Source: Arenicellales bacterium
GTDB lineage: Bacteria; Pseudomonadota; Gammaproteobacteria; Arenicellales; Poriferihabitantaceae
Assembly: GCA_963422685.1 (NCBI GenBank)
Contig: OY730442.1
Span: forward strand, 2,695,847-2,759,846
Direction of reading: 5' to 3'
Length of the DNA stretch: 64,000 nucleotides
The notes beneath the pieces were generated by a model. It was not told the DNA's origin, made no database searches, and saw only the letters and a program-made list of their open reading frames with translations. The translations under genes and the position numbers were made by a program. Of this stretch, positions 19,302 through 43,460 are shown piece after piece. The stretch's first letter is position 1. Each line of letters opens with the position of its first letter.

Positions 19302-19979
19302 TCACAGGTCGCCGGGCACGCCATAAGAAGGCGCACCAATCGGGTTAATCGCACGGGTCAGATAATCCTGCATCTGCGGTTGGTAGCGTGTCCAGATTTC
19401 CCGCAAACCAACCACCGCACAGGTATCGTGCCAGTCCACCCGCAAGTCCACCAACGGGAAAGGCTGTTTATCTACCACCAGCAGCGCCGCAGAATGTACC
19501 TCGCCCTGTTCACCACCGGCGTCCAGACCGGCTTGCAGTGCATTCAGTAATCGCTCGGCAAGATGGCAGTGGGTATGGGCTGTGAATGCCGCCGTCATGG
19601 CATCCGGCACGCCCTGATGCGATAACAGATTGCCCGCTGCGAGGCAATTTTTTTGCGTTGACTGAGAATGGATACCGAGAATATTGTCACCCGTGTGGCA
19701 GGCGATGTTGCCGGCATTATCTATCACCGCAAGTTGTCGAAATTCACCATGCTGCAAGCCATCCAACACCGCTGCCAGAGCCTGATTTGCGGATTTGCCC
19801 AGGGCCAGTTGATCCAGCAATGCCGGGCCCAGTGCGGGGTCGGTTATATTCTGGGTCGCCGCCGCACCCACCCCCGCTCTGGCATGGGGGCAGCGAGCAC
19901 CAACGCAAATACTTGAGGTGGTGATGGCTACTCCGAACATTCCTGTTTGTTCGCACCGACCAATGATTGAAAATGTCAC
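19302..19979 (-). CDS. DUF1028-family (Ntn-hydrolase-like) protein
   Basis: The N-terminus MTFSIIGRCEQTGMFGVAITTSS...ATQNITDPALGP is typical of DUF1028 (N-terminal MTFSI...). 225 aa. Confidence 0.65.
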   Translation of the reverse strand: MTFSIIGRCEQTGMFGVAITTSSICVGARCPHARAGVGAAATQNITDPALGPALLDQLALGKSANQALAAVLDGLQHGEFRQLAVIDNAGNIACHTGDNILGIHSQSTQKNCLAAGNLLSHQGVPDAMTAAFTAHTHCHLAERLLNALQAGLDAGGEQGEVHSAALLVVDKQPFPLVDLRVDWHDTCAVVGLREIWTRYQPQMQDYLTRAINPIGAPSYGVPGDL

Positions 19980-19983
19980 AGGA

Positions 19984-20403
19984 TCAGCTTGCAGGAATGA
20001 CTGCGGTGACTTCGATTTCCATCAGCCATTCCGGCCGGGCCAGTCCACTGACGATTAACCCAGTAGAAACCGGGTAGACGCCTTTCAACCATTTGCCGAT
20101 GGCCTGATAGACGTCATCGCGATAACGGCGGTCGGTAATATAAACCTGTATCCGGCAAATATGGCTGAGCTCTGAACCTGCTTCCAGCAGCAATTGTTCC
20201 ACATTTTTCATGGCTTGATCGGCCTGGCTGTAAGCATCCGCATCGACCAGGCTTGCAAACCTGTCAATTTCCTGACCGACTTGACCGCGCACAAAAACCA
20301 GGGTGCCGCTGGCTTTAACCAACTGGCACAAATCGTTATCCAGGTTTTGATCCGGGTAGGTCTGTTTGGTATTGAATTTACGGTAACGCTGATGTGTCGT
20401 CAT
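19984..20403 (-). CDS. RidA/YjgF/UK114 family (reactive enamine/imine deaminase-like)
   Basis: 139 aa with ...VFVRGQVG... and ...ARPEWLMEIEVTAV... at the C-terminus, typical of the RidA fold. Confidence 0.7.
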   Translation of the reverse strand: MTTHQRYRKFNTKQTYPDQNLDNDLCQLVKASGTLVFVRGQVGQEIDRFASLVDADAYSQADQAMKNVEQLLLEAGSELSHICRIQVYITDRRYRDDVYQAIGKWLKGVYPVSTGLIVSGLARPEWLMEIEVTAVIPAS

Positions 20404-20470
20404 ATTAATTACCCGAATAATTACCAGGATATCGGAGCGAAAAAATCGGTAATCGAATCAGCATAGGGCA

Positions 20471-21628
20471 TCACAGCGCCTTGCCATAAAGGTTTCGCGC
20501 CAGATACTGGGTGAACTCATGATTCTGCTGTTCAAGCCAGCACAACGGGCCAGGGCCGGACAAGGGGGAATGAACGCCTTTATACAGGCCCTCAATAACG
20601 AACCGATCTTCCTCATTGACCTGATCGAGGATGTCGCTGACCTCATTGATTAAAGTCTGCTTGTCTGCCGTGGCCGCCAGTACTTCCGGTGCTATCGCCG
20701 CGCCATACCGGATGTAAATCTGCCCGGTACCTTTCGGCTGTATCGAGATATACCACAGGTGGTCGGGCGCAAGAATATAAAAATGGTTTGGGAAAACGCC
20801 GATTAGAAAGGAAGTATTTCGCTGCTCCCCGGCCAGGTGCCGGTTATCTTCATGCGCCCGCCCGATGCGTGCGCCATAGGACTTGGTGAAAGTCTGGTAG
20901 GTAAAAGCCCGGTTCGGCGGATTTTCCGAAAATCGTGTTTCATCCACCGTCAAATGTTTGCCTACCGTGGTGCTGTGGGTAACGGGTAAATGATAGCCTT
21001 CAATAAAATTTTCTACCAATTGCTTCCAGTTCCCGGTCCAGACATAATCCTGTTGCACCACATTGACGTAGTCGGACATTCTATATTCGTGAACAATGTC
21101 ATACAGTTCTTGCAACTGGTCCTGCACCGGCGCGATATCCTGGTCCAAGGTGACATAAACCCAACCTTCCCAGACTTCACAACGAATTTCAGGCAAGACA
21201 AAATCTTTGACATTAAAACGGGGATTGTCGTGCATATGCGGTGCGCCGATCAGACGGCCCTGTATATCGTAGGTCCAGCCGTGATAGGGGCAGATGATTT
21301 TTTCACAGCTCCCCGAGTTTTCAAGCAGCCGCATCATACGGTGCAGGCAGACATTCGAAAATGCAGAAATCTCCCCGGATTTCTGGCGCATCACCGTAAC
21401 GGGCTGATACGCAAGGTGATGAGTCAGATAGTCACCCGGATTCGGGATTGAATCGGCCCGCCCGGCGCAGACCCATTGTTTGTAAAATATTTCCTTTTCT
21501 TCCAGGCGCAGGAATGCTTCCGAGGTATAGACTTCTTTTGGCAATCCGCTGGCCTGATTCAGCGGTTTTTCAGATAAATCCTTCAATTTATCCAGCAAAT
21601 CATCAAGTTGTGGTGACTTGTCCGACAT
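20471..21628 (-). CDS. Rieske [2Fe-2S] non-haem iron oxygenase, alpha subunit (GbcA/CntA/Stc2-like class)
   Basis: Rieske motif CLHRMMRL...CPYHGWTYD, and a catalytic domain with EGYHLPVTH. No reductase or beta subunit is adjacent. Confidence 0.8.
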   Translation of the reverse strand: MSDKSPQLDDLLDKLKDLSEKPLNQASGLPKEVYTSEAFLRLEEKEIFYKQWVCAGRADSIPNPGDYLTHHLAYQPVTVMRQKSGEISAFSNVCLHRMMRLLENSGSCEKIICPYHGWTYDIQGRLIGAPHMHDNPRFNVKDFVLPEIRCEVWEGWVYVTLDQDIAPVQDQLQELYDIVHEYRMSDYVNVVQQDYVWTGNWKQLVENFIEGYHLPVTHSTTVGKHLTVDETRFSENPPNRAFTYQTFTKSYGARIGRAHEDNRHLAGEQRNTSFLIGVFPNHFYILAPDHLWYISIQPKGTGQIYIRYGAAIAPEVLAATADKQTLINEVSDILDQVNEEDRFVIEGLYKGVHSPLSGPGPLCWLEQQNHEFTQYLARNLYGKAL

Positions 21629-22153: not shown

Positions 22154-22270
22154 AACTCCTTCCTGTGAGAGGGGTATCCGTTGCAGTTCATTTCAATTTG
22201 GCCGGACGGAGTACTTTTCATACCACATTAGGATTACTACTAATTGAACATCCTACGTAAGGAGAATATT

Positions 22271-23446
22271 ATGACGACGAGAGAAACGTTTCGGCTGATT
22301 TTGTTTTTTACATTCTCGCTTGGTTTGTCCACTACGGCCTTTTCAGAGGGTCTCGATGAAATTCCTGCTGACACCCGCGCCAGGGTCTACAATCCTGACT
22401 TGATGGACCCGGCCCAGCCACTCGAAGCCAGCATCTACCGAAACTGGAAAACCGACCGCAAGCCGCCCTGGACCATTGGTTATGCAAGTACCTATGCGGG
22501 TAATACCTGGCGCAAGGGGGCGATGGCCAGGCTGCTGAGCGAAGTATTGCCCAAGTGGCAGGCGCTTGGCCTGGTTGATGACATTATCGTTACCCAGTCT
22601 AATCTGAAAGACTCGCTACAAATCCAGCAAATGAGACAATTGGTTGATCAGGGTGTGGACGCCATTATCATCTGCTGTTCAAACCCGACTGCGTTGAACC
22701 AGACAATCAAATACGCTTACGAAAAAGGGGTTCCAACATTTTCATTTACCGGTTACGTCACCTCGCCATACGCGATTAATTCGTCGGTGAATTACCACCA
22801 GGCCGGTTATGAAATCGGTCGATGGATGGCTGAAGAAATTGGCGAAAAAGGCAATGTGCTGGTTATCGAAGGCATCCCCGGGGCATCTGCATCGGATTCC
22901 CAGAATGCTGGCGTGCTGGATGGTCTGGCGCAGTCTCCTGATATAAAACTGGTCGGAAATATCGCACATATGTGGACATCACAAGTCGGTCAGGCTGAGG
23001 TTCAGAAGTGGCTGGCGACTCACCCGCAGCAGTTGGATGGCATCGCGGTACAATCATCTGGTGAGACGGGTGTGTTGCAGGCATTATTACAATCGGGCCG
23101 GGATATTCCGCCCATCTCCATTGGCGGCGAACTGGGCGCTTTGTGTTACTGGCGTAACAATCCGGATTACATCAGTGCCGCGATTCAGACCTGGCCTCCG
23201 GGGGATGATATTGAACTTGGCTGGAACATCATGATGCGCACCATGCAGGGCCAGGGGCCGAAGATTCAATCTATTCTGGTTCCCACTGTCAAGTCCAGTT
23301 TCGACGACATCAAGGCATTGCTTGATGAGAACTGTGACCGCAATTCAACCGATTGGCTGCATGTTGGCATTGATGTCTGGGGCGGAACGAATTACCTGGA
23401 TCAATTTTTTATGAATCCTGCGGACCCGGCAGATTACAAACCTTAA
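22271..23446 (+). CDS. CUT2-type (sugar-like) ABC transporter periplasmic binding protein, PBP1 fold
   Basis: AAGGAG RBS at 22259..22264, and signal peptide MTTRETFRLILFFTFSLGLSTTAFSEG. The body shows the Peripla_BP pattern (...VDAIIICCSNPTAL..., ...GNVLVIEGIPGASASD...). The ORF-track start at 22244 is less likely. Confidence 0.8.
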   Translation: MTTRETFRLILFFTFSLGLSTTAFSEGLDEIPADTRARVYNPDLMDPAQPLEASIYRNWKTDRKPPWTIGYASTYAGNTWRKGAMARLLSEVLPKWQALGLVDDIIVTQSNLKDSLQIQQMRQLVDQGVDAIIICCSNPTALNQTIKYAYEKGVPTFSFTGYVTSPYAINSSVNYHQAGYEIGRWMAEEIGEKGNVLVIEGIPGASASDSQNAGVLDGLAQSPDIKLVGNIAHMWTSQVGQAEVQKWLATHPQQLDGIAVQSSGETGVLQALLQSGRDIPPISIGGELGALCYWRNNPDYISAAIQTWPPGDDIELGWNIMMRTMQGQGPKIQSILVPTVKSSFDDIKALLDENCDRNSTDWLHVGIDVWGGTNYLDQFFMNPADPADYKP

Positions 23447-23481: not shown

Positions 23482-25314
23482 ATGAATAGCGGAAACGGTG
23501 TAGTATTAAAGGGGCACGATGAAAGCATCTTCGGCGAACCGCCGGCGGTGCTTTCTTCGTTTGCGGGGGAGCTCTATGTCAAGGACGTACACAAGACGTT
23601 TGGCGTGACCAAAGCGCTGAATGGTTGTTCGTTCAGTGCAAATTTTGGAGAAATTCACGCCATTGTCGGCGGCAACGGCTGCGGCAAGAGTACGCTGGCC
23701 AAAGTGCTTTCCGGTGTCCTGCCGATGGACTCAGGCAAACTTTCAATTTTGGGTCATCATCCCACTTCACCCTCCGAAGCCCGCAATACAGGCATTGCAA
23801 CGGTATTTCAGGAAATCATGATTGCTGATCAAGCCACTATCGTGGATAACCTGTTTATCGGCGCTGACGGCTTCTGGACCAGGGCCCTATCGGCCAGAGA
23901 AAAGCGGGACAAAGCGCAGGTATTGATGAAGGAATTGACAGGCGGGGAGATGGACTTGCTCAGGCCAGCGGGCGATTTACCGCTGAGCATCAAAGCATGG
24001 ATTACCATTGGCCGCGCATTGTTGTGCGAGCCGAAGGTTTTAATCCTGGATGAATCATCAGCCGCGCTTGATTTCGATTCCACCGAACGTTTATTTACCA
24101 AAATGCGTGCACTGCGCGGTCAGGGCGTTGCAATCATCATTGTCACCCACCGCATAGCGGAATTAATCAGAATCAGCGACCGGGCCACCGTCATGCGTGA
24201 CGGGCGCGATGTCGGCGTTCTGGAAAAAAGTGAGATCACCGAACCAAACCTGTTGAGTCTGATGACTGGCAGGAATGACGCTACCGAAACCTCTGCGGAG
24301 CACGCGCACAGGACAGCGAGTCGAGAAGTGGTGCTGAAAACCAGCCGCTTAAAAGTGTGGCCCGAAAGCGACCCGATTGATTTTGCGATACTGAAAGGCG
24401 AAATCGTCGGCATTACCGGTCTAGATGGTCATGGTCAGGACGATTTTGTGCGCATTCTGGCCGGGATTGCACAGGCAAGCGAAGGATACCCCGAGATTAG
24501 GGCGGATGGCTCCAATGACTACGTTGCAATAAGAAATCTTGAACAGGCAAAAGACCACGGCATTGCATTCGTGTCCGGTGATCGAAAGCGTGAAGGCATT
24601 CTGCCCAACCTGAGCATATTCGAGAATTTATTGATTCCGTTGTACCGCAGCAATTCACGGCTGCCTGGGGTCAGGTTTATCGACTGGCAAGGGCTGTCAG
24701 ACGTGTTCGATTGGGAAGTGGGGCGGCTGTCGATTAAAACCGGCGCCCAATCCAATCTCATCACATCATTAAGCGGCGGCAATCAACAAAAAGTAATCAT
24801 CGGCCGTTCCTTTGCGTTACATCCGAAAATACTGATATTAAACGACCCGGCCCGTGGCATTGATGTGGACACCAAGCGCGACCTGTACAGGCACTTGCGC
24901 GAGTTTGCCAGCGAAGGGAATTCCGTGGTTTACATGTCCAGCGAACTGGAAGAATTTATCGGCTTTTGCTCCCGGGTTGTGGTGTTTCGCCACGGCAGTA
25001 TTTTTAAAACCTTTGTGGATGCGGATGTAGAGCCGGTTGGTATTTTAGAAGGCATGTTCGGCAGGGCCGGCGGTACGCAGCCATACACTGGCAGCAATCC
25101 GTCTGCCACCCGCAAAGACAGCGATAAGGGCAATAGCGCACAGCCGGCCACATTCCACTCTCCTTGCCGACAGAACGCGAATACCATCGATTCGCCTAAA
25201 CCACAACCTCTGACCGGCGATGACGTCTCCCATATCAGGATAGTGGATTTCGACCATGCTCCCGAACCGCTGACAACTGACCGCGGCAAGATGAAAATCT
25301 CTTACTTTGATTAA
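23482..25314 (+). CDS. CUT2-type ABC ATPase (two fused NBDs) with an 83-aa C-terminal linker plus conserved tail
   Basis: NBD1: GGNGCGKST, LILDESSAALD, IVTHR. NBD2: LSGGNQQKV, LILNDPARGIDV. The canonical fold ends near ...ILEGMFG (about nt 25062). A low-complexity linker follows, then LTGDDVSHIRIVDFDHAPEPLTTDRGKMKISYFD. Confidence 0.85.
   Translation: MNSGNGVVLKGHDESIFGEPPAVLSSFAGELYVKDVHKTFGVTKALNGCSFSANFGEIHAIVGGNGCGKSTLAKVLSGVLPMDSGKLSILGHHPTSPSEARNTGIATVFQEIMIADQATIVDNLFIGADGFWTRALSAREKRDKAQVLMKELTGGEMDLLRPAGDLPLSIKAWITIGRALLCEPKVLILDESSAALDFDSTERLFTKMRALRGQGVAIIIVTHRIAELIRISDRATVMRDGRDVGVLEKSEITEPNLLSLMTGRNDATETSAEHAHRTASREVVLKTSRLKVWPESDPIDFAILKGEIVGITGLDGHGQDDFVRILAGIAQASEGYPEIRADGSNDYVAIRNLEQAKDHGIAFVSGDRKREGILPNLSIFENLLIPLYRSNSRLPGVRFIDWQGLSDVFDWEVGRLSIKTGAQSNLITSLSGGNQQKVIIGRSFALHPKILILNDPARGIDVDTKRDLYRHLREFASEGNSVVYMSSELEEFIGFCSRVVVFRHGSIFKTFVDADVEPVGILEGMFGRAGGTQPYTGSNPSATRKDSDKGNSAQPATFHSPCRQNANTIDSPKPQPLTGDDVSHIRIVDFDHAPEPLTTDRGKMKISYFD
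25210..25311 (+). other. Shared C-terminal tail, copy 1 (on the ABC ATPase)
   Basis: LTGDDVSHIRIVDFDHAPEPLTTDRGKMKISYFD* aligns with the tails at 25842..25958 and 29989..30087. Confidence 0.8.
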
Positions 25315-25331
25315 CAGGCATTGAATAACAA

Positions 25332-25961
25332 ATGGCATCGAAAACAAATCAAAAAGCACCGGCGGATGGTCAGAACTTCACCGACCGCGATACAGTGCAT
25401 TTTGAAACGCTCATGAATTCGTTTGATGTCAATACCGGTGTGCATGCTGAACGCCAGGATGAAAACAAGGAATCACCACGAATGGCTGTCCCGGACGAAT
25501 TTCCGTATACCGGGAGCGATATCCTTGAGTTTCAAAAGTTGATGGCTTCCAGTAACGCACCGGGGAATATGCGCAATACCGGTCCACTGTCTAGTGGTAA
25601 AGTTTCAAATAACACCAGTTATACCGAGGATGACAACCATTTTTTCGATGCGTTAGGGTCATTCGACTGGAGAGCGGGCCCAAACGCCGGGACAACGAGC
25701 TCCGCCAATCCGCCAAAACGGCAGGCGCCAACACCCGACACCGTCAAGTATTCCCGGCAAGACCTGGAAATATTTGCCAGGTTAATGCCCGGCGCGGCAG
25801 GCAGCAGGGAGTACGCCACCAGTAAGCCCGATGCGGCGCCGATACATATTGATAGAGACGTTGGCCATATCAGAATTGTTGATTATGACAAGCAGCGGCT
25901 GGCCGATTCGAAGCGCAAAAATCGTCCGCATATCGACATGAAAATTCATTATTTCGACTAA
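25332..25961 (+). CDS. Low-complexity repeat protein with the shared C-terminal tail (candidate scaffold)
   Basis: 209 aa with no recognisable enzymatic domain. It has four in-register [FY][TS]xxDxxxFxxL[MG] motifs and ends in the same tail as its neighbours. In-frame conservation of the tail argues that it is a real CDS despite a weak RBS. Confidence 0.7.
   Translation: MASKTNQKAPADGQNFTDRDTVHFETLMNSFDVNTGVHAERQDENKESPRMAVPDEFPYTGSDILEFQKLMASSNAPGNMRNTGPLSSGKVSNNTSYTEDDNHFFDALGSFDWRAGPNAGTTSSANPPKRQAPTPDTVKYSRQDLEIFARLMPGAAGSREYATSKPDAAPIHIDRDVGHIRIVDYDKQRLADSKRKNRPHIDMKIHYFD
25377..25787 (+). repeat. Four protein-level short-motif repeats inside ORF 25332..25961
   Basis: FTDRDTVHFETLM (25377..25415), YTGSDILEFQKLM (25506..25544), YTEDDNHFFDALG (25620..25658) and YSRQDLEIFARLM (25749..25787). 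Spacing is 43, 38 and 43 aa. Confidence 0.8.
25842..25958 (+). other. Shared C-terminal tail, copy 2 (on the repeat protein)
   Basis: IHIDRDVGHIRIVDYDKQRLADSKRKNRPHIDMKIHYFD*. Confidence 0.8.
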
Positions 25962-25966: not shown

Positions 25967-28063
25967 ATGCAGAAATCAACCCTGGGCACACAATACCGAC
26001 TAGGCATTGATGCGGGAGGCACCTTTACCGACTTTGTGCTTGCCGACCAGATGGCTGGCACGGTTAACATTTACAAAGCGTTGTCCACACCCGGCAATCC
26101 GACCGAAGCGATCCGGGACGGGTTGCAACTTATCTCGGAAGATTTGGGTGTCACAGCAAAAGATGTCATTTCACAATGCGATTTATGTATCAACGGCACC
26201 ACAGTTGGGCTCAACGCATTAATTCAGCACAAAGGGGCAAAGGTCGGCCTGATTACCACCGCAGGCCATGAGGATTCCATCGAAATACGGCTGGGTCACA
26301 AAGAGGACGGCTATCGATACGACCCTGAGTATCCCCCGGCGGTGATGTTGGTGCCGCGATACTTGCGGTGCGGTGTGCGCGAACGGGTTGTTTCCAACGG
26401 CAGGATCAAAACCGGGATGCAGGAGGAGGACGTCCGCGACGCTTGCCGAATGTTTCAGGAGGAGGGCGTTGAGGCGGTGGCGATTTCATTCATCTGGTCT
26501 GTGCTGAACCCGGCCCATGAAATCCGCGCGGCAGAAATCGTGCGTGAAATGCTGCCGGATGTGATCCTCACCGTGGGTAGCGAGCTCTACCCGCAAATAC
26601 GCGAATACACGCGAACCTCCACTGCCATCACCAATGCTTATCTTGCGCCGATTATTAAAACCTATGTCAATTCAATAGACAACTATTTCAATGAGCTCGG
26701 CGCGATCAATCCGGTTCGTTATTTTCAGTCCAACGGCGGCCTGGCCATTGGCCAGGCAATGACCGACCGGTCCGTATACGCAATCAATTCCGGGCCGGCC
26801 TCTGCCCCTCAGGCGGCCCTTGCGATATGTGCGCCTTTTGGTCACCGGAATGCCATCACCGTAGACATGGGTGGAACATCGTTTGATATTACCCTGGCCC
26901 GGGACGGTGTTACCAACCTCAACAAGAATATCGATTTTCTGCGTTACCGCATCGGCGTGCCGATGATTCAGGTAGAAACCCTGGGGGCAGGCGGCGGTTC
27001 AATCGGTTGGATCGATGAAATGGGGTTGTTACAAATGGGGCCGCAAAGCGCGGGATCAGATCCCGGTCCGGCCTGCTATGACCGCGGCGGCACCGAGCCC
27101 ACGGTGTCAGATGCAAACCTGGTTCTGGGTTATTTGAATCCGGCTGGTCTGGTCGGCGGCCGTCTGCCATTGAACTACGACAAATCCTGTCAGGTGATTG
27201 AAGAAAAAATTGCCCGTCCATTGAATATTTCAGTGGAAAAGGCCGCTTACGGTATGTTTACCATCGTCAATAACAACATGGTCAATGGCATTCGCCGGGT
27301 TTCCGTGGAGCGTGGATATGATCCGCGGGATTTCGTGCTGGTTGCGGCGGGCGGCGCCACCGGCGCGCATATAACCGCATTGGCAACGGAAATGGGTATC
27401 GATACTGTGATCGCGTCCAAACTGAGTTCTGGCCTTTGTGCATACGGACAGATTATTGCGGACGTCAAGTATAATTATATGGCGACCATTCCAGTGCGAC
27501 TGGAAGGCAATGAGACCTATGTCCGCATTAATGCGCTGTATGATGATATAGAAACCAGAGGCATCGATCATTTAAAGTCCGACGGTTTTGCCGAATCGGA
27601 CATCGATATCAAACGCAGCATGGAAATGCGTTATGTCGGGCAGATTCACGAATGTACCGTAGACATCGAATCCTTCGAGATCAACGCGCAGACAATTGAG
27701 CAGATTAAAAATGCGTTTCATGATCGCCACGAACAGTTATTCACCTATTCCGAGCGGCATAACCCGGTCGAACTGGTGAATATCGAAAGCACGCTCTATG
27801 GGCGGGTGGCGCGACCCAATCCGGCGGAACTTGACAGCGGCCCGGCAGTGGAGAATGCGCTAAGCGGACAGCGTGATTTGATTTTTTCCGATGATGCCAG
27901 ACCCGTCCGCGTGCCGGTTTATGACGGCGCAAAAATTGGCGCCGGCAGTCAGCTTACCGGCCCTGCGGTGGTTGAAGAAGAAACCGCGACCTACGTTATT
28001 CAGCCGGACTGGCAAATTGCGCTGCACAAAAGCGCATCATACGTGATTACCCGGGTGCGTTAA
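25967..28063 (+). CDS. Hydantoinase A / oxoprolinase family, ATP-binding subunit (HyuA-like)
   Basis: 698 aa: YRLGIDAGGTFTDFVL (ASKHA-fold phosphate-1), ...TVDMGGTSFDI..., ...LGAGGGSIGW... Typical of the Hydant_A_N and Hydantoinase_A domains. Confidence 0.88.
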   Translation: MQKSTLGTQYRLGIDAGGTFTDFVLADQMAGTVNIYKALSTPGNPTEAIRDGLQLISEDLGVTAKDVISQCDLCINGTTVGLNALIQHKGAKVGLITTAGHEDSIEIRLGHKEDGYRYDPEYPPAVMLVPRYLRCGVRERVVSNGRIKTGMQEEDVRDACRMFQEEGVEAVAISFIWSVLNPAHEIRAAEIVREMLPDVILTVGSELYPQIREYTRTSTAITNAYLAPIIKTYVNSIDNYFNELGAINPVRYFQSNGGLAIGQAMTDRSVYAINSGPASAPQAALAICAPFGHRNAITVDMGGTSFDITLARDGVTNLNKNIDFLRYRIGVPMIQVETLGAGGGSIGWIDEMGLLQMGPQSAGSDPGPACYDRGGTEPTVSDANLVLGYLNPAGLVGGRLPLNYDKSCQVIEEKIARPLNISVEKAAYGMFTIVNNNMVNGIRRVSVERGYDPRDFVLVAAGGATGAHITALATEMGIDTVIASKLSSGLCAYGQIIADVKYNYMATIPVRLEGNETYVRINALYDDIETRGIDHLKSDGFAESDIDIKRSMEMRYVGQIHECTVDIESFEINAQTIEQIKNAFHDRHEQLFTYSERHNPVELVNIESTLYGRVARPNPAELDSGPAVENALSGQRDLIFSDDARPVRVPVYDGAKIGAGSQLTGPAVVEEETATYVIQPDWQIALHKSASYVITRVR

Positions 28064-28065: not shown

Positions 28066-30090
28066 ATGCCGGAAGTCGATCCAATCACACTATCCGTGGT
28101 TCGCGGGATTCTGGAAACCACCCAGCGGGAAATGACCCTGGCGCTTGAAAAAACCGGGCGATCCAGCGTATTTAACCTGGCCCATGACTATTCCACGGCC
28201 ATGTTCAACGCCACTCCTGAAATGATCATGCAGGGCCAGGACATACCCATTCACCTGGGTTCGTTGATGCCTGCGATGAAAGCGGTGGCCGGTTATTTTG
28301 GCGACGACCTTCATCCAGGTGATTTGCTGCTGCACAACGACCCGGAATACAAGGGCAGCCATATTCTCGATATGTGCATGTACAAGCCGGTTTTTTATAA
28401 AGGCGAACACATATTCTGGACGGTATGTAAAGGACACCTGACCGATATTGGCGGGCCGGTACCGGCCGGTTACAACCCGGATGCCAGAGAGATTTACGCC
28501 GAAGGGCTGCGTGTGCCCCCCATCAAACTATGGGACAAGGGTAAGCCCCGGGAAGACATACTGAATATGCTGCTGACCAATATGCGGGCGCGGCGCGACC
28601 AGGAGGGCGATTTCAATGCCCTGATTGGCGCTTGTCAGGTTGGCGAACGCAATCTGCTTAATATGCTGGATAAATACGGTATTGAGCAAGTCCGGCTGTG
28701 CATTGATGAATTGCTGTCCATGGCGGACCGTCACATGCGCTCACTGATCAGGCAGGTGCCCGACGGCAGTTTCTCGGGCACCGCGATTCTGGAAGATGCC
28801 GGCCATGGTTTCGGCGACATAGAAATCACCGCGAATCTGACCATTACCGGCGACACCTGCCGGATTGATATCACCAGTCCACCCCAGGTGCCCTATTTCA
28901 TCAACTCCTATGAAGGCAATTCCTATTCCGGTGTGTATCTGGGAGTGATGATGTTTGCCCAGCTTCCGCCGCCATATAATGAAGGTCTGTACCGGTGCGT
29001 CACCGTAAACATGGGGGAAAAGGGGACATTGTGCAATGCGGCCGAACCGGCGCCCCACGTTAATTGTACAACTACCCCGATGGAAACCCTGACCGATGCA
29101 GTGCGTCTGGCCTTTGAGCAGGCCGCGCCAGACAAAGTGAGTGCATCATGGGGGCATACCAATGGCTGCAACATTGCCGGATGGGATTCACGAACCAATG
29201 AAGAATATGTCACTATGGTGCTGGCAACACTTATTTCTGGTGCCGGGGCGACTCCGCAACAGGACGGCTGGCATGCCTGTGGGCCGCAGTCCTGTTTCGG
29301 CGCGCTGACTTCGGGTGATGTTGAATTGCTTGAGCATTCTTATCCGATCATTATTCATCGTTACAATCTGATGACCGATTCCGGCGGTGCGGGAAAATTT
29401 CGCGGAGGGTCGGGAACCTGTTGGGAGGTTGAGCCGATGGATGAACCGATGACCTTCGTGATGTTTGGCGAAGGCCGTCGTTTACCGGCAATGGGTGCGG
29501 CGAACGCGCGCTCAACCATGATCGAGCCCAAAGTCGGTCGGGTCGAATTTACCCGGAACGGTAATGTCGAAATCGTTCGCAAAAACGTCATTGCCACCAT
29601 TCAGCCAGGCGAAACCGCAACCAATAAAAATCCGGGCGGCGGCGGCTATGGCGACCCGTTTGACAGGCCCATCGACAAAGTCATCCAGGATGTAAAAAAC
29701 CGGCTGGTTTCAATCGAAGGCGCTCGGGAAGATTATGGGGTTGTGATCAAGAATGCCGAAACCCTTGAGGCGGATAACCCGGCCACCACCGCGCTGCGCA
29801 GCAATCAATTGCGTCACAAAATGACTGCGCCTGCTGCCATTTCTGGCGCTGACCAGGCCGTTAAATTAGCTCCCGCACCGGTTTCATCGGTGAATATTGA
29901 TCGCCCTGGCGCGGGCGATGTGGCAACAAACCGCAAACCCGGTGACAGGGAGTCGTACAAACAGGGGGGCAACGCCGCTCCAAAACCGTTGACTGGCGCG
30001 GACGTGGGCTTTATTCGAATTGTTGATTTTGATAAACAGGAATCATCCGGCAGGAAAAATAAAAAGAATATGAAAATCCGCTATTTCTGA
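28066..30090 (+). CDS. Hydantoinase B / oxoprolinase family subunit (HyuB-like) with an approximately 88-aa C-terminal linker plus conserved tail
   Basis: DPITLSVVRGILETTQREM..., ...SGGAGKFRGGSG..., ...GGGGYGDPFDRP...REDYGVV is a complete Hydantoinase_B domain. It is followed by a Pro/Ala/Gly-rich linker and LTGADVGFIRIVDFDKQESSGRKNKKNMKIRYF. Confidence 0.88.
   Translation: MPEVDPITLSVVRGILETTQREMTLALEKTGRSSVFNLAHDYSTAMFNATPEMIMQGQDIPIHLGSLMPAMKAVAGYFGDDLHPGDLLLHNDPEYKGSHILDMCMYKPVFYKGEHIFWTVCKGHLTDIGGPVPAGYNPDAREIYAEGLRVPPIKLWDKGKPREDILNMLLTNMRARRDQEGDFNALIGACQVGERNLLNMLDKYGIEQVRLCIDELLSMADRHMRSLIRQVPDGSFSGTAILEDAGHGFGDIEITANLTITGDTCRIDITSPPQVPYFINSYEGNSYSGVYLGVMMFAQLPPPYNEGLYRCVTVNMGEKGTLCNAAEPAPHVNCTTTPMETLTDAVRLAFEQAAPDKVSASWGHTNGCNIAGWDSRTNEEYVTMVLATLISGAGATPQQDGWHACGPQSCFGALTSGDVELLEHSYPIIIHRYNLMTDSGGAGKFRGGSGTCWEVEPMDEPMTFVMFGEGRRLPAMGAANARSTMIEPKVGRVEFTRNGNVEIVRKNVIATIQPGETATNKNPGGGGYGDPFDRPIDKVIQDVKNRLVSIEGAREDYGVVIKNAETLEADNPATTALRSNQLRHKMTAPAAISGADQAVKLAPAPVSSVNIDRPGAGDVATNRKPGDRESYKQGGNAAPKPLTGADVGFIRIVDFDKQESSGRKNKKNMKIRYF
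29989..30087 (+). other. Shared C-terminal tail, copy 3 (on hydantoinase B)
   Basis: LTGADVGFIRIVDFDKQESSGRKNKKNMKIRYF*. Confidence 0.8.
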
Positions 30091-30099: not shown

Positions 30100-32364
30100 A
30101 TGAGTGCGACCAATAGCCATCAATCAGCCACGGCGATCAGTATGACGGGTTCCAAAGAATCCGGCTCTGGCGCCAATACGTATCTAATGGTGCCGATGTT
30201 TATCTTTTTCGCATTACTGATTTTTGCTGTGATTCGAGGCCCTAACCTGATCTCTGGTTCGGGTATTGGCAGCGCAGTGATCGTGGTGGCGCCATTAATA
30301 CTGGCGACCTACGCTTTGACCATCATTGTTATGGCGGGCCGAGCGGGAGTGGATCTTTCAATCGGTCCGCTCATTGGCTTTATCAATGTGGGCATGATTC
30401 AGTTGTTTGCGGTCGGATTCATGGAATCGCCCATCGCCTTTTTCCTGTATGCCATGGGTGTGGGTATCGCCTATCAGGTATTACAGGGGTTGATTATTAT
30501 TTTTGTACGGGTACAGCCGATAATCGTTTCGTTGAGCGGCTATCTTACCCTAGTGGGTCTGAACCTCATTATCATGCCCCGGCCCGGCGGTGTGGCGCCG
30601 GACTGGATGTTCCCCTGGGGCAGTGGCACCACGATTTTTTCAGCGATGCTGGTAATACTGGTACTGGCCACCATCGCCTGGTACATCATCGCCCGATCGG
30701 CATTTTTCGGCCACTTGCGCTTGATGGGTTCGGATGAACGCGCAGCCTATACCAGCGGTGTGCGCATTAATCTGGTGCGTCTGGGGGCGCATGCAATCGG
30801 CGGTGTCTATGCCGGACTTGCGGCGATTGCGTTTACTTCCCTGATCAGTTCCGGTGACCCGACCCAGGGCACGACCTATACCCTGATGGCCGTAACCGCG
30901 CTGGTGCTGGGTGGTGCCAACCTCGCTGGCGGGCGCGGCAGCGCGTTTGGCTCCTTGCTGGGCGCGTTGAATATCTATTTGATCACTTATGTCCTGTCAA
31001 CCTTCAACTTCGGCATGGTGCAGAGCTTTGTCACCGATATGGCCTATGGAGTAATGCTGGTTGTCTCATTATTGATCAGCGTGGTCGTGCCGCACATGCA
31101 AAAGCATATACGCAACCTGTCACCCTTTATGTTCTTTGTGATACTGCTAACCATTACGCTTGGTGTGATTATTCATACCGCTATGGACCAGGTCATGCAA
31201 CCACTGGCCGGGGCATCGTCTTCATCCTTTGTCATACTGGCCGATGGTGGTGTCGCACAGGCAAGCGGCGCAGCGGCCGGGGCGTCCTATTCTCCGGGAA
31301 CCTATATTCTTTTTATCATCATCGGCATCGTTGCTGTGGCCTACGCATTGCGCGTGTTATTCAAATATCCTAAAACACCGATGATCGCTTTTATGGCCGT
31401 CATGGCCATCGCCGCGCTCGGTTTGATTTTCAATCCCGACTCCCCGGTCGAACCCAATGCAGCGACGATGGAGCAGACGGCGCCCAGTGAACTGGATGCG
31501 TATACGCCGACGTTCTTCGCTATGGAAACCGTGGATGCAGTTACCAATACGCGGGATGCCGCCAATCTGGTTGTTCATACCACCTACGCCATGCTCACCA
31601 TGATCGGCGTAGTATTACTGGCTTCATTGATCATTCTCGTTATGCTGCCCCAGGTCAGGGTTCGCATCAAGCGCATGGCCCTGGTTCTGTTTGCCGCAGC
31701 AGTCGCGGTGATTGCGGTGGGGGCGTTATTCTTTGAGGACTTCGAAAAGGGTTATTTGGCCAGCAATCTTTCCGGGGAAATATATGCGGTGATTTTAGTG
31801 GGCGTCGGTTTGTTCACGCTGACGGCGCCTTTGGTGCACAACAGGCTCAGTAATATTTCCAGTATATTTATCGTGCTGATCGGTGTGCTGGCGATAATTT
31901 CCGTATACTTTTTTACTGAACCTGCCGGCAATATGGATGACATCAGCGCCTCCGGCTCAGCAAGCGCTTCGCCTGTATTCGCATCGGCCGCAGAGTCGGC
32001 GCACCCTCCTGTGGCCGAATATGCCGGCCCGGTGCGAGTAAATGTGGATGCTCCCGGGATGGCGGTGCACACACAATTAGCATATTGCGCATTCATTATC
32101 GTGCTGCTGCATATATTTCTGAGCATCGCCATGGGTGAAAACAGCTTTCGCAGCTTCTGGCGCATCTGGTATATCCCCGTTCTGGCCGCATTGGTGTGGG
32201 GTGGTTTGTTTTATGCTATTGGGGTTGCGCTGTGGCAGATTGTCGCGGTGGCCGCTGTGGCCATACTTTCCGCCCCCAACGTTATGCATATTATCAGCAC
32301 CTACAGAAGCAAACAGGGCCGCGATATTTCGCTCAGCCGGATGGGCCATCATGACAGAGCCTAG
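30100..32364 (+). CDS. CUT2-type ABC permease (BPD_transp_2) fused to an approximately 415-aa extra polytopic C-terminal region
   Basis: Residues 30-335 resemble RbsC/AraH-type permeases (...MAGRAGVDLSIGPLIGF..., ...LGGANLAGGRGSAFGSLLGAL...). Residues 340-754 (nt 31117..32364) add many hydrophobic segments and Ala/Ser/Gly-rich loops with no family I recognise. Confidence 0.8.
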   Translation: MSATNSHQSATAISMTGSKESGSGANTYLMVPMFIFFALLIFAVIRGPNLISGSGIGSAVIVVAPLILATYALTIIVMAGRAGVDLSIGPLIGFINVGMIQLFAVGFMESPIAFFLYAMGVGIAYQVLQGLIIIFVRVQPIIVSLSGYLTLVGLNLIIMPRPGGVAPDWMFPWGSGTTIFSAMLVILVLATIAWYIIARSAFFGHLRLMGSDERAAYTSGVRINLVRLGAHAIGGVYAGLAAIAFTSLISSGDPTQGTTYTLMAVTALVLGGANLAGGRGSAFGSLLGALNIYLITYVLSTFNFGMVQSFVTDMAYGVMLVVSLLISVVVPHMQKHIRNLSPFMFFVILLTITLGVIIHTAMDQVMQPLAGASSSSFVILADGGVAQASGAAAGASYSPGTYILFIIIGIVAVAYALRVLFKYPKTPMIAFMAVMAIAALGLIFNPDSPVEPNAATMEQTAPSELDAYTPTFFAMETVDAVTNTRDAANLVVHTTYAMLTMIGVVLLASLIILVMLPQVRVRIKRMALVLFAAAVAVIAVGALFFEDFEKGYLASNLSGEIYAVILVGVGLFTLTAPLVHNRLSNISSIFIVLIGVLAIISVYFFTEPAGNMDDISASGSASASPVFASAAESAHPPVAEYAGPVRVNVDAPGMAVHTQLAYCAFIIVLLHIFLSIAMGENSFRSFWRIWYIPVLAALVWGGLFYAIGVALWQIVAVAAVAILSAPNVMHIISTYRSKQGRDISLSRMGHHDRA

Positions 32365-32376: not shown

Positions 32377-33786
32377 ATGAAAAGAGCGACCTATTCATTT
32401 TACAAGTGGCTTGGTTGCATAATCGCCGCAATGGTTGCCGGGGTCAGCGCGATTCTAGGCTGGATAGATGGGGCACCCATGCAGCACATCGTGTTTTACG
32501 CTATGGCCATCTTCGCATTAATTCTTTGGGGATGGCATCACTGCTCGGTACGCTGGATATATCGATCAGACGAAATTGCGGTCAGCACCACGCAACACCA
32601 GCCGGATGCGGCCACCGGCCAGGCCGATGAAGAATATCAGCCAAGCTTTGTGCGTACACTGATTGCCGGAAACAAGAGCGGCGCATGGGGTTTGTTGGCG
32701 CTGGTTATCGCATTCATTGCCAGCGCATTCGTCGTGGATGATTTTTTTCAATGGCGCAATATCATCTCGGTACTGGTATTTATTGCCTTTATTATTATGG
32801 CCTTTATTCTCAATAAACGAATCAAGACCAACAAAAGCGCATTCATCGGCATCGTTGTATTGATCGGGCTGTTCGTGATTGGATCGCTGGTAGTTGAAGG
32901 TTTTCTGTCCATCCTGAACATCAAATCCATGCTGGTGTTTGCCTCGTTTCTGGGTTTGGCCTGTATCGGACAAACCCTGGTTGCGTTGCTGGGCGGGCTG
33001 GATTTGTCCATACCTTTTGTCATCGGTTCATCCAATATTGGCCTGATGTATTTGCTCACCCTGGGCACGCCGCCATGGATCGCATTTATCGCAATCCTGC
33101 TGGTCGGCGCGGGGATTGGTTTTATAAACGGCATGTTGAGTTTTCGTTTGCAGGGCCAGGCGCTGATCCTGACCTTGGGAGTCGGTTTTGCGGTTTCCGG
33201 CGGCACCCAGATTCTCACCAGCATCGGCACTGCATTCGGCGGTAATGTATTCGGAGTGGTGCCCAAATGGTTGTCTAATATCGCTGCCATGAATGGCGTG
33301 TTTTTCGGATTAGAGTTTCCGCCAGTGGTTATTATCTGGGTTCTCGCCGCAATTATCCTGATTATCGGATTGCGCAATACCATCTGGGGAAGGCATCTGT
33401 ACGCCCTTGGCGGCAGTCGTATTTCAGCAAAGCGTCTGTCCATATCGGAACGCGGTTACTGGGTCGGTATGTACAGCATCAGCGGCTGTGTATCGGCGTT
33501 CACTGGTGCCCTGCTGCTGGGATGGAGCGGCGGCGGATTTATCGGCGTAGGCGATCAATATCTATTCATGACCCTGGCGGCCGTAGTGGTGGGCGGCACT
33601 TCCCTGCTGGGCGGCTGGGGCGGTTATGGCTTCACCGTGATTGGTGTACTGGTTTTGCAAGTGCTGACATCATTTCTGGTCGGTATAGGGCTGGATTATG
33701 AAAGTCAGCAATTCGTATTCGGGTTGCTCATTCTACCCATGGTGGCATTGTATGCGCGCTCGCCGCATATACGCACACAGATCTAG
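32377..33786 (+). CDS. CUT2-type ABC permease with an approximately 150-aa extra N-terminal membrane region
   Basis: The C-terminal 320 aa are BPD_transp_2-like (...LLGGLDLSIPFVIG..., ...VVGGTSLLGGWGGYGFTVIG...). The N-terminal 150 aa (nt 32377..32826) hold about 4 hydrophobic segments and an acidic loop not seen in the control permease 44378..45421. Confidence 0.8.
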   Translation: MKRATYSFYKWLGCIIAAMVAGVSAILGWIDGAPMQHIVFYAMAIFALILWGWHHCSVRWIYRSDEIAVSTTQHQPDAATGQADEEYQPSFVRTLIAGNKSGAWGLLALVIAFIASAFVVDDFFQWRNIISVLVFIAFIIMAFILNKRIKTNKSAFIGIVVLIGLFVIGSLVVEGFLSILNIKSMLVFASFLGLACIGQTLVALLGGLDLSIPFVIGSSNIGLMYLLTLGTPPWIAFIAILLVGAGIGFINGMLSFRLQGQALILTLGVGFAVSGGTQILTSIGTAFGGNVFGVVPKWLSNIAAMNGVFFGLEFPPVVIIWVLAAIILIIGLRNTIWGRHLYALGGSRISAKRLSISERGYWVGMYSISGCVSAFTGALLLGWSGGGFIGVGDQYLFMTLAAVVVGGTSLLGGWGGYGFTVIGVLVLQVLTSFLVGIGLDYESQQFVFGLLILPMVALYARSPHIRTQI

Positions 33787-33876: not shown

Positions 33877-34284
33877 TCAACGGTATTCTGCCAGTAAATC
33901 GGCGATGCGCTTTAAAAATATTGCATGTTCGCTCGCTTCTTCAGAAGAAAAGGATTCCTTGAGGATTTTCACGGGTTGTCCGCGTACTCCCGGGCAGATG
34001 CCGATACGGTAGTCTTCATGCCGGCGTTTGCATACGGTTATGTACTTGCCTGCCATCGGTTGACGACGGAATTTATCCAGTACCGTGATTAAATCCTTAC
34101 TGTGTTCAATCGGCGGTCTGCCGTTTCCCGGAGGCCCGGCCACAGGATTCGCTTTATGTTCAGCGATCAGCCGGTTACGGGTTGCCGCGTCAGTCAGCAG
34201 GGGCAATACATGGGTCCGGGTGATGTAGTCGTCGGTGCTGGTGCGCCCCTGGTCAGTTTGCACGCCGGTTGGTTTATTTAGCAT
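33877..34284 (-). CDS. N,N-dimethylformamidase small (alpha) subunit-like protein
   Basis: 135 aa. ...AEHKANPVAG...LDKFRRQPMAGKYITVCKRRHEDYRIGICPG...FSSEEASEHAIFLKRIADL follows the pattern I recall for the DMFase small subunit (...F.MQP.FG.YYI...W..YRI...F.TEEEAMHAVFLRRI.D). It lies downstream of the large-subunit homologue. Confidence 0.55.
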   Translation of the reverse strand: MLNKPTGVQTDQGRTSTDDYITRTHVLPLLTDAATRNRLIAEHKANPVAGPPGNGRPPIEHSKDLITVLDKFRRQPMAGKYITVCKRRHEDYRIGICPGVRGQPVKILKESFSSEEASEHAIFLKRIADLLAEYR

Positions 34285-34323: not shown

Positions 34324-34692
34324 TCAAGTACATCGACACGGCGCTGATTCGCCGCGCACTTGTTTGATGCGGCGCGCTTCACGCTGCGCCAGTTCCGGTG
34401 TGGGAAAGCGCTTGTCTGCAAATAATATGATTGGCTTTATCCGGTCCGCATTGAGTTGGCCCACACACCATTCTTTATCCGGTTTGGTGCATACCACCAT
34501 GTAGGCGCCTGGAATGGGGCCATAGCGCCGATTGTTCAGTACAAACAGGCATTCAGCCAAATTGTTAAGTTTATCCACGTCCAGTTGACTCAATGCGGCC
34601 ATTTCCAGCTCATTGGGCGACACCAATGCCGCTCCCATCACTTCTTTACCCTGGGGTCGTTGCATCATCGGCGGTGATTGATTGTCTGGCAT
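34324..34692 (-). CDS. Divergent paralogue of the DMFase small-subunit-like protein
   Basis: 122 aa. GAYMVVCTKPDKEWCVGQLNADRIKPIILFADKRFPTPELAQREARRIKQV aligns with GKYITVCKRRHEDYRIGICPGVRGQPVKILKESFSSEEASEHAIFLKRI of the neighbour. Confidence 0.5.
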   Translation of the reverse strand: MPDNQSPPMMQRPQGKEVMGAALVSPNELEMAALSQLDVDKLNNLAECLFVLNNRRYGPIPGAYMVVCTKPDKEWCVGQLNADRIKPIILFADKRFPTPELAQREARRIKQVRGESAPCRCT

Positions 34693-37089: not shown

Positions 37090-37117
37090 GGTTTTTTCCC
37101 CGAATAATCGCCTTGAA

Positions 37118-39058: not shown

Positions 39059-39121
39059 ACTGGACTCCCATTGATCGAGTTGGCCATGTGATCAATACGC
39101 TTTGTGCACCGCGACAGCCCG

Positions 39122-39883
39122 CTAGACAATTTGTTTTGGGGCCTGGGGGACCCGGGCCCAGAATTTCGGGTCATGCCCATAGAATATTCGCGCCCCGGCT
39201 TTTTCCAGCTTGCGCAGCAGCAACAGCGAATCAAGCATTTGGCTGCGATTATGAACCAGATGCGGCAGGTGCAGATTGGTCAGAGTTTCTTTTAAGTAAC
39301 AGGCATCAGCGGATAATATGATGTCACCAGAATCCAGGCGAACCTTCAGTGACTGGTGACCCGGAGTGTGGCCGAAGGTCGGTAGAGTGACTATGCGCCC
39401 ATCTCCGAACAAATCGTGTTCGCCGTTGACTTTCTGCACCAGATGACCATGATCATAATCCGCAGGAGCGTAGCCATTGGCTTTAATACATTCCGGGGTC
39501 TGCCCTGCTTCCCATTCGCGTTGTTGAATAATTATTTTGGCGTTTGGAATCAATTCATTACCGCCCGTATGATCAAAGTGCAGGTGTGAGTTAACCAGGT
39601 ATTCGATTTTATTCGCTTCGATATCCAGTTGTTGCAGACGTGACTTTATGTCCTCGCCCTGACGAAATTCAACACTAAAAAGATCCGCCAGAAATCCTAT
39701 CCTGCTGCGTGGATCATGCTGGCAGTGGGGATGCAGCCCGGTATCGAACAACACCTGACCGCGCGGGTGATCAACCAGATAAGCCGGCACCGGGAACCGA
39801 ATTCTGCCGGCTTTGCCGGCAAGCATCATGTTCAGCCCGGAGGTCAGCCAGCCGCAGGTCATGGCGTATACTTTTATGGACAC
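39122..39883 (-). CDS. Metallo-beta-lactamase fold hydrolase (AHL-lactonase-like subgroup)
   Basis: 253 aa with NSHLHFDHTGGN (HxHxDH), followed by the ...GHTPGH... and ...GHD... metal ligands. Confidence 0.75.
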   Translation of the reverse strand: MSIKVYAMTCGWLTSGLNMMLAGKAGRIRFPVPAYLVDHPRGQVLFDTGLHPHCQHDPRSRIGFLADLFSVEFRQGEDIKSRLQQLDIEANKIEYLVNSHLHFDHTGGNELIPNAKIIIQQREWEAGQTPECIKANGYAPADYDHGHLVQKVNGEHDLFGDGRIVTLPTFGHTPGHQSLKVRLDSGDIILSADACYLKETLTNLHLPHLVHNRSQMLDSLLLLRKLEKAGARIFYGHDPKFWARVPQAPKQIV

Positions 39884-39938
39884 GCAACGCCCTGATTCTT
39901 GCTGTTACTATCGGTCTGCAAACGCAGTAACACCGTGG

Positions 39939-40793: not shown

Positions 40794-40845
40794 TTTTTTG
40801 TTCCTGGAAACGCTGTTTCAGTAGGGTTGTCTGGCGAGGTCTGCA

Positions 40846-43399: not shown

Positions 43400-43460
43400 A
43401 ATTTCATGCTCCTAACTTGTTCTGTCGGCGACCATTTTTCACTGAAAATAAATAATAATG

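Follow-up and report, generated by a model that had tools for sequence, protein, structure and literature searches.

Very abundant marine bacteria, among them SAR11, HIMB59 and Pseudothioglobus, have in common the conserved flotillin-associated rhodopsin (FAR) gene clusters, which were defined by Haro-Moreno et al. 2023 (PMC10308929). The function of these clusters is stated as unknown (PMC10308929; bioRxiv 10.1101/2025.04.29.651185), and one of the SAR11 genes, SAR11-cds19 (AG-390-L03-C2-cds38), carries the label 'Hypothetical protein, none predicted, SAR11 only' in Table S2 of the defining paper (PMC10308929). Here, we describe a gene of the same kind in 64,000 nucleotides (nt) of an Arenicellales bacterium (GenBank assembly GCA_963422685.1, contig OY730442.1, positions 2,695,847 to 2,759,846 of the forward strand), a stretch hereafter called the window. 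Its open reading frame (ORF) at 25332..25961 encodes a protein of 209 amino acids (aa) which, judged by its motifs and tail, is a member of the SAR11-cds19 family, a family left undescribed in the FAR papers. At a probability of roughly 0.5 we read this protein as a disordered multivalent adaptor of the sugar-type ATP-binding cassette (ABC) importer of the FAR cluster, whose C-terminal tail would be a docking tag shared with other proteins of the same operon. The novel aspect is such a disordered multivalent adaptor, together with a shared docking tag, in a context that has no earlier description.

The likeness to SAR11-cds19 extends to both position and architecture. The SAR11 gene lies between a sugar-type ABC ATPase and the permease with 20 transmembrane (TM) helices of the FAR cluster, and its product, in the single-amplified genome (SAG) AG-390-L03, has 169 aa, four Y-x-x-x-D-x-x-x-F-x-x-[LI] motifs and, as its tail, IRVIDYS...KIKVVYFD. 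It differs in having been published as a hypothetical and SAR11-specific protein, without description of the motifs, of the tail and its ATPase and enzyme carriers, or of homologues in gamma- and other alphaproteobacteria; both the FAR paper (PMC10308929) and the cryo-EM preprint on the pentamer of retinal-less FArhodopsin are silent on motifs and tails. We define the SAR11-cds19-like family by four or five [FY]-[TSA]-x-x-D-x-x-x-F-x-x-[LIM] motifs 30-48 aa apart, a C-terminal hKhh[DY]FD ... hKhxYF[D] tail and a gene directly 3' of a tail-bearing ATPase gene, all of which are found for the protein of the window.

The first-pass annotation, made from the letters of the window, had placed a low-complexity protein here, and re-translation matched its ORF, strand and length exactly, as well as the gaps of 17 nt to the ATPase gene and 5 nt to hyuA. 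An earlier start is impossible because an in-frame TAA stands 6 nt upstream of the ATG. Asparagine, serine, threonine, glycine, proline and aspartate account for 44% of the residues, and the protein has no match in Pfam or NCBIfam, in keeping with the claim that it has no recognisable catalytic domain. Its elements are as follows, helices being those of an AlphaFold2 (AF2) model.

25332..25961, plus strand: gene of the small protein, ATG start, 209 aa, disordered, with four helical motifs and the C-terminal tail
25377..25415, plus strand: motif 1, F16-TDRDTVHFETL-M28, matched by the regular expression; D20, F24 and L27 at least 94% conserved; AF2 helix 18-35
25506..25544, plus strand: motif 2, Y59-TGSDILEFQKL-M71, matched by the regular expression; Y59 97% and D63, F67 and L70 100% conserved; AF2 helix 61-74
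25620..25658, plus strand: motif 3, Y97-TEDDNHFFDAL-G109, matched by the regular expression; Y97, D101 and F105 100% conserved; AF2 helix 99-110
25749..25787, plus strand: motif 4, Y140-SRQDLEIFARL-M152, matched by the regular expression; AF2 helix 142-151
25851..25958, plus strand: tail, D174..D209, two 7-residue strand units around a basic spacer
25869-25889, plus strand: strand unit 1 of the tail, IRIVDYD
25938-25958, plus strand: strand unit 2 of the tail, MKIHYFD

The expression [FY]-[TS]-x-x-D-x-x-x-F-x-x-L-[MG] gave exactly four matches, at the residues and nucleotides that had been reported for it, with start-to-start spacings of 43, 38 and 43 aa and with motif 4 beginning 70 residues before the C-terminus. 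Such a pattern is not readily produced by composition: among 200,000 composition-preserving shuffles of the protein a single match arose in 8 and two or more in none, and analytically 3.7e-5 matches are expected for each protein. The expression is also specific, as all 41 matches in 466,000 six-frame residues fell in the small proteins and in one enzyme linker of a SAR11-type locus (L006, described below).

A single-sequence search of 5.8 billion proteins returned one relative, P0002, which at 36% identity holds four motifs and the tail in register with the 209-aa protein. Genome and profile searches raised the family to 16 members and an exhaustive search with a profile of the tail to about 33 full-length ones, which share 22-37% identity. 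In the 33-sequence alignment the commonest residue had a mean frequency of 0.26 in the linkers, 0.59 in the motifs and 0.64 in the tail, the mean entropies being 2.92, 1.65 and 1.52 bits, and positions conserved at 80% or more were confined to Met1, the Y, D, F and L of the motifs, and tail residues. The motifs thus passed decisively the test of conservation on which the first-pass annotation had staked its claim, for together with the tail they hold nearly the only conserved positions. Exactly four motifs occur in 27 of the 33 full-length members and five in one; motif starts lie 30-48 aa apart across the family, so that linker sequence is free while linker length is constrained, and 22 of 33 place the start of the last motif exactly 70 residues before the C-terminus. 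The motifs moreover have flavours that belong to a position (SAFxYTESDxRAFDRLM at the second, GYTExDxRLFxELMxaDRF at the third). On this alignment, selection is seen to act on motifs, tail and spacing, the signature expected when short linear motifs sit on a disordered chain and their geometry is important, and the ORF qualifies as a genuine, conserved gene.

Disorder and helix prediction, proposed as a check at the outset, agreed with this picture. AF2, run on a 16-sequence alignment of the family, gave four helices in a disordered chain, with a confidence score (pLDDT) of 78-86 for the motif blocks (86 for motif 2) and below 50 for the linkers. We read the [ST]-x-x-D box as a probable N-cap that fixes the start of each helix, and the Y, F, L and M of each motif as one putative binding face. 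The helices carry charges of 0 to -5 and have hydrophobic moments of 0.26-0.46; being neutral to strongly acidic and of such moment, they are disfavoured as membrane-binding amphipathic helices.

The tail is the second conserved module. It comprises about 35 residues, in the pattern IRIVD[FY]D, spacer, MKIxYF[D]-COOH, and amounts to two 7-residue strand units of the type hKhh[D/Y]FD. A six-frame scan of the window recovered it in three places only, at the C-terminal ends of the ATPase, of the small protein and of HyuB/CapB. These proteins are encoded within seven genes that run head to tail with gaps of 2-35 nt, in the order binding protein, ATPase, small ORF, CapA, CapB, permease 1 and permease 2.

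22244..23446, plus strand: periplasmic substrate-binding protein of the ABC importer (Pfam Peripla_BP_4), syntenic in all cassettes
23482..25314, plus strand: RbsA/YtfR-type ABC ATPase with two nucleotide-binding domains (NBDs), 610 aa (Pfam ABC_tran, twice)
25048..25311, plus strand: C-terminal extension of the ATPase, aa 523-610, a low-complexity linker and then the tail LTGDDVSHIRIVDFD...KMKISYFD (about 25210-25311)
25967..28063, plus strand: HyuA/CapA, alpha subunit of a caprolactamase-type ATP-dependent lactamase (Pfam Hydantoinase_A; NF050156), without the tail
28066..30090, plus strand: HyuB/CapB, caprolactamase-type beta subunit, 674 aa (NF050157)
29794..30087, plus strand: C-terminal extension of CapB, aa 577-674, a disordered linker and then the tail LTGADVGFIRIVDFD...NMKIRYF (about 29989-30087)
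30100..32364, plus strand: permease 1, 754 aa (Pfam BPD_transp_2 at aa 66-322 only, an RbsC-like core)
32377..33786, plus strand: permease 2, 469 aa (Pfam BPD_transp_2 at 182-453), with an N-terminal extension of about 150 aa

In both linked carriers the tail lies beyond the part covered by the respective family model, on disordered linkers 60-100 residues long. Within the ATPase the NCBIfam YtfR model spans residues 31-522 only, and NF050157 stops at residue 576 of CapB, canonical CapB being without the 98-aa extension. CapA and CapB themselves pass the NCBIfam equivalog cutoffs of 1000 bits, with 1208 bits against NF050156 and 1103 bits against NF050157. Extension and tail recur on the ATPases of nine further loci (L002, L003, L005, L007-L009, L012, L013, L015), and those of CapB are conserved in L002, L003, L005 and L007. 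The profile of the tail matched 82 proteins, in every one of which it stands at the extreme C-terminus. Against a word-indexed protein database the same profile returned short fragments only, candidate selection there hiding the long carriers, and a sequence search of the Protein Data Bank with the tail and with the full family gave nothing significant (best E = 0.25 and 0.057). A scan of metagenomes for the tail brought up one locus that we rejected, L014, where 'GVGHIRIVDFDKVELSNLNRQ' is a ThiF/E1-type Rossmann strand and a false positive.

Spacers are basic in the tail of the small protein and not in those of the ATPases; acidic spacers in ATPase tails and in the strand-unit-only proteins described below disfavour the tail as a polybasic membrane anchor. 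Two proteins among the profile matches have unusual N-terminal parts: P0090 (116 aa) has a MoaB/MogA-like half whose 'GGTGLTGRDVT' runs directly into the tail, and P0054 (262 aa) begins like a glycosyltransferase-8 and continues with one motif and the tail. These could be true fusions, or chimeras of assembly or gene calling. The first-pass annotation had further taken 'PYTGSNPSA' in the ATPase linker for a degenerate motif start that hinted at common ancestry with the small protein. The string is present at 25081..25107, yet it is missing from the ATPase linkers of L002, L003, L007, L013 and L015; as a relic motif we have rejected it for not being kept in orthologous linkers, and it is most likely a product of chance.

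Comparison of loci indicates with what the small protein keeps company. The seven-gene cassette recurs in metagenome-assembled genomes (MAGs) of Hyphomicrobiales (L002) and Arenicellales (L003) and on metagenomic contigs (L005, L007, L008, L009), with its order of binding protein, ATPase, small protein, CapA, CapB and two permeases kept across alpha- and gammaproteobacteria, and with tails on ATPase, small protein and CapB in all six. Locus L013 encodes the binding protein, a tail-bearing ATPase, a small protein of 276 aa with five motifs and the tail, and both permeases, and no hydantoinase genes were found in the 20 kb examined there. L004, a gammaproteobacterial MAG, looks like L013, but frameshifts hamper its reading: at 1-1100 the small-protein gene is split over three frames, though five motifs and the tail can be read across them, and the permease genes are broken too, which looks like homopolymer indel errors of a long-read assembly rather than decay.

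In the SAR11-type cassettes (L006 and SAG AG-390-L03) the place of CapAB is taken by PxpA, a fusion of biotin carboxylase and carboxyltransferase (BC-CT), a PxpC-like protein and a biotin carboxyl carrier protein, and in both the PxpC-like subunit has the tail at its end. In L006 the linker between the domains of the BC-CT fusion holds two copies of the motif, YSDKDVKAFEKII and YTDKDLKEFENIV, where two or more matches arose in 2 of 100,000 shuffles (P ~2e-5); the two-motif linker is seen in L006 alone, the published SAG sequence ending before it. A third variant (L010, L011, L012, L015) encodes, between a tail-bearing ATPase and permease 1, a relative of about 110 aa with 5-6 copies of [IM]K[IV][IV]EFD, acidic or proline-rich spacers and no helices.

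L006, 3568-5016: fusion protein whose linker, from the biotin-carboxylase part to a PxpB/KipI-like domain, has two motifs (nt 3964 and 4036)
L006, 5024-5989: PxpC/KipA-like protein ending in the tail, directly after the fusion gene
L010, 798-1130: strand-unit-only protein
L011, 417-773: strand-unit-only protein
L012, 1483-1830: strand-unit-only protein
L015, 1847-2173: strand-unit-only protein

Because these relatives hold five or six copies of the same unit, the tail of the longer proteins is best seen as a tandem pair of one 7-residue unit (IRIVDFD, MKIRYFD). From L013, the SAR11-type cassettes and the strand-unit-only variants we conclude that the invariant core is the transporter plus a small disordered protein with strand units, to which helices are an added module, and that enzymes joining the cassette acquire the tail. 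Gene content across the loci shows the small protein as belonging to the ABC transporter and the FAR cluster and not to the hydantoinase. The partnership with HyuA and HyuB that the first-pass annotation implied does not hold, for the small protein occurs also in cassettes without hydantoinase genes (L013, SAR11); its expectation of homologues next to hyuA/hyuB came true directly upstream of capA in several loci, and failed as a general rule in the same two cases. An ordinary sugar-type ABC system of the window (44378..48264), considered below, has neither tail nor small protein and serves as an internal control. We also considered, and rejected, an equality of motif and tail numbers (one tail on the ATPase, two on CapB and one on the protein itself, making four), since SAR11 has 4+2 motifs and L013 five motifs against only two tails.

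Several well-known systems are built in a comparable manner. CsoS2, CcmM/M35 and EPYC1 carry repeated short motifs on disordered spacers and a terminal anchor, and are encoded with their clients. The first-pass annotation had drawn the parallel with multivalent organisers of the CsoS2/CcmM type, and the disordered chain, the four conserved helical motifs and the terminal anchor are indeed there, with the gene beside its would-be clients; the likeness to CsoS2 and CcmM stays an analogy, as the sequences are unrelated and the putative clients are an ABC importer and amide-cleaving enzymes that depend on ATP. No Pfam or NCBIfam match connects the protein with that class, and no bacterial microcompartment (BMC), shell or Rubisco families were found in the 45 ORFs of the window that were scanned. 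Encapsulin cargo-loading peptides and microcompartment encapsulation peptides are short conserved terminal peptides on long flexible linkers. They resemble the tail in following a flexible linker and in being common to linked proteins of different folds in one cluster, and differ in that the tail is a two-strand unit rather than a helix or GSL-type peptide and that one of its carriers is a transporter ATPase already at the membrane; no encapsulin or BMC shell gene was found in the window or among the Pfam labels of L005, L007, L008 and L013. The C-terminal scaffold of RNase E in the degradosome is a long disordered region in which several recognition segments recruit different partners. It likewise has several short conserved recognition segments within disorder, but the 209-aa protein has four copies of one motif class and no catalytic domain, and because its segments are of one class a repeated or oligomeric partner is suggested.

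The wider setting of the cassette is the FAR cluster. Every sufficiently long locus proved to be one, with FArhodopsin and flotillin genes adjoining the cassette; the contigs of L010, L011, L012 and L015 are too short to judge whether rhodopsin and flotillin are nearby. A 232-aa rhodopsin follows permease 2 directly and on the same strand in L002, L003, L004, L005, L007, L008 and L013. In the window the FAR block (34732..44159, minus strand) is inverted relative to the ABC cassette and to the other loci, and about 8 kb away.

43461..44159, minus strand: FArhodopsin-like protein, 232 aa (Pfam Bac_rhodopsin, E = 2e-34)
41354..43399, minus strand: flotillin, 681 aa (Pfam Band_7 and Flot)
40846..41235, minus strand: SCP2-like ORF, 129 aa
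39939..40793, minus strand: alpha/beta hydrolase (Pfam Abhydrolase)
39122..39883, minus strand: metallo-beta-lactamase (Pfam Lactamase_B)
37118..39058, minus strand: sodium symporter (Pfam SSF)
34732..37140, minus strand: DMFase-like protein (Pfam DMFA2_C)
34324..34692, minus strand: ORF of 122 aa without Pfam match, downstream of the DMFase-like gene
33877..34284, minus strand: ORF of 135 aa without Pfam match, downstream of the DMFase-like gene

The hallmarks of a FAR cluster are thus present: a proteorhodopsin-family paralogue immediately beside a flotillin gene on the same strand, with a gap of 61 nt; an ABC importer with oversized permeases, the SCP2-like protein of 129 aa, the DMFase-like protein, the sodium symporter and the alpha/beta hydrolase; and two small proteins of about 120-140 aa (135 and 122 aa). 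Over long stretches the latter two are identical to SAR11-cds06 and SAR11-cds08 (Table S2), and they may be small subunits of the DMFase-like enzyme. SAR11-cds06 is mislabelled 'inner-membrane translocator' in that table.

Under the adaptor reading the tail would be a common docking tag that brings ATPase, enzyme and small protein to one site, by strand pairing either with each other or on a shared receptor, while the four helices would be equivalent sites for a repeated or oligomeric partner. The net effect would be a cytosolic ring-opening enzyme held at the importer, where it could trap an imported uncharged lactam at once. We infer that the modules bind at all, what they bind and the metabolic purpose; both alternative enzyme sets belong to families (caprolactamase/5-oxoprolinase and LamB/urea-carboxylase-like) that act on cyclic amides. 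Tethering would amount to metabolic trapping suited to scarce, membrane-permeant substrates and, as far as we know, to the first ABC importer wired to a catabolic enzyme by shared docking tags. The tail and motifs are the first sequence-level indication that FAR-cluster proteins are physically assembled, and they name as participants the importer ATPase, an exchangeable enzyme that opens lactams with ATP, and a disordered protein dedicated to the adaptor role; peptides of both modules are usable directly as baits for a receptor.

Flotillin and other SPFH scaffolds resemble the present case in that a flotillin gene is adjacent in every informative locus; to our knowledge no flotillin-binding motif of such kind has been described. 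The flotillin of the window is predicted to face the cytoplasm, having an N-terminal TM segment followed by YRRSSKE, and is a candidate platform for the tails or motifs. Its C-terminal strand 'NIDAIKILEVNG' resembles a unit of the tail, and the two align in the segments anticipated, but at an hhalign probability of 1.4%, which is not significant and makes it a lead only. Recruitment of transporters and enzymes has been proposed as a role of flotillins (PMC10308929). As receptors, flotillin and the rhodopsin pentamer are, speculatively, the most attractive, because they are oligomeric and always present. We raise, tentatively and as a possibility with the odds against it, that the tail is an address label for a flotillin/FArhodopsin platform, with the cytoplasmic flotillin oligomer or the retinal-less rhodopsin pentamer as receptor and the four to five evenly spaced helices clasping neighbouring subunits. 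The result would be a metabolic unit attached to the membrane and bounded by flotillin, where tags resembling encapsulation peptides, together with a disordered scaffold, would keep the ABC importer and the ATP-dependent amide-opening enzymes in one place. If so, the FAR cluster and its 'blind' rhodopsin would gain a concrete and testable function.

A number of observations weigh against the adaptor reading. The family is rare, with 82 matches to the tail in 1.84 billion representative proteins, this being a 50% representative library in which tail-less representatives mask long tail-bearing proteins. Translation of the ORF is inferred from the conservation of the protein, an indirect basis, and no clear Shine-Dalgarno sequence was found upstream of its start. 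In the AF2 model the tail was not folded (pLDDT 56-68, no strands), none of the motif helices docked on it and helix-tail contacts were absent, and P0082, a strand-unit-only relative, came out fully disordered. Neither among the permease loops nor in the flotillin strand was a binding partner found for tail or motifs. Finally, the NCBIfam label 'caprolactamase' says nothing about the marine substrate of CapAB.

The alternative that survives best, though we consider it unlikely, is that the protein is a regulatory subunit of the transporter, whose tails and helices bind the NBDs of the ATPase or coupling sites of the permeases and control transport, for instance by making import depend on whether the downstream enzyme is occupied or on its ATP state, instead of providing a structural tether. 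Regulatory appendages are found at the C-termini of other ABC importer ATPases, MalK and MetN among them. Every type of cassette has the invariant pair of small protein and ATPase tail, and the pair is kept even where the cassette has no enzyme gene (L013, L010-L012, L015). What a regulatory role leaves unexplained is the presence of the same tail on long linkers of two unrelated cytosolic enzymes (CapB and the PxpC-like protein), nor does it readily account for four to five equivalent motifs of constrained spacing.

We hold it to be distinctly improbable that the protein is a phase-separating scaffold of the 'sticker and spacer' kind, with mutually binding tails and helices forming a membrane-attached condensate of ATPase, enzymes and small protein. 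A disordered multivalent architecture, acidic helices (charge 0 to -5), a basic spacer in the tail and the presence of that tail on three proteins of the operon would suit such a scaffold. The strand-unit-only relatives have no helices at all, so that binding of helix to tail cannot be obligatory, and the ATPase-tail spacers are not basic; AF2 showed no contact of helix and tail, and with six motifs in SAR11 against fewer tails there is no simple matching of numbers.

A third subunit or assembly factor of the hydantoinase/caprolactamase, akin to the small subunits of acetone or acetophenone carboxylase, would be in line with the partners implied at the outset and with a gene 5 nt upstream of capA in the window and directly upstream of it in L001, L002, L003, L005, L007, L008 and L009. 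This is very improbable and, on the gene content of L013 and SAR11, largely refuted: the family is present in L013 with no hydantoinase genes within 20 kb and in SAR11 clusters with a different enzyme system, and the protein has no Pfam match to the small subunits of acetone carboxylase (gamma), acetophenone carboxylase or other carboxylases of the hydantoinase family, nor an obligatory co-occurrence with Hydantoinase_A/B genes. A chance ORF or low-complexity artefact between two true genes, in accord with the absence of any family or structure match and of an obvious ribosome-binding site, is already refuted by conservation, as about 33 full-length homologues at 22-37% identity keep frame, length, four motifs and tail, and the motif pattern would arise by chance only 3.7e-5 times.

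Both permeases of the cassette are far larger than ordinary RbsC-type permeases, and their SAR11 orthologues have 20 (permease 1) and 14 (permease 2) predicted TM helices (Table S2, PMC10308929). Beyond its core, permease 1 continues C-terminally for about 420 residues, in which lie some ten additional hydrophobic segments and three long loops that are conserved and apparently periplasmic. We considered its conserved strand-like loops FVILADGG, FFAMETV and VRVNVDA as docking sites for the tail and rejected them as periplasmic by the positive-inside rule, loop topology being a reading of the sequence by that rule. The N-terminal extension of permease 2 holds a conserved cytoplasmic stretch, WHHCSVRWIYRSDEIAV.

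The second ABC system of the window (44378..48264) lies directly beyond the rhodopsin gene and is of an ordinary sugar type, with a permease of 347 aa and an ATPase of 538 aa. Its wider region (44378..51209) holds a binding protein and, after it, genes for a LuxR-type response regulator and a hybrid histidine kinase, and a LuxR-type regulator/histidine kinase pair stands upstream of the FAR-cluster cassette in other loci. Upstream of the cassette in the window are divergent genes (19302..21628, minus strand) for a Rieske/ring-hydroxylating oxygenase alpha subunit, RidA (L-PSP) and DUF1028, and to the left of these an M20 peptidase, an S49 peptidase, a thiolase and an acyl-CoA synthetase-like gene; both groups may serve downstream catabolism of the imported compound. 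The edges of the window are unrelated, and carry an integrase-core (rve) fragment at 2523..2984 and, at 58231..63996, a type I restriction R subunit, a YgjP-like metallopeptidase and an unassigned ORF of 556 aa.

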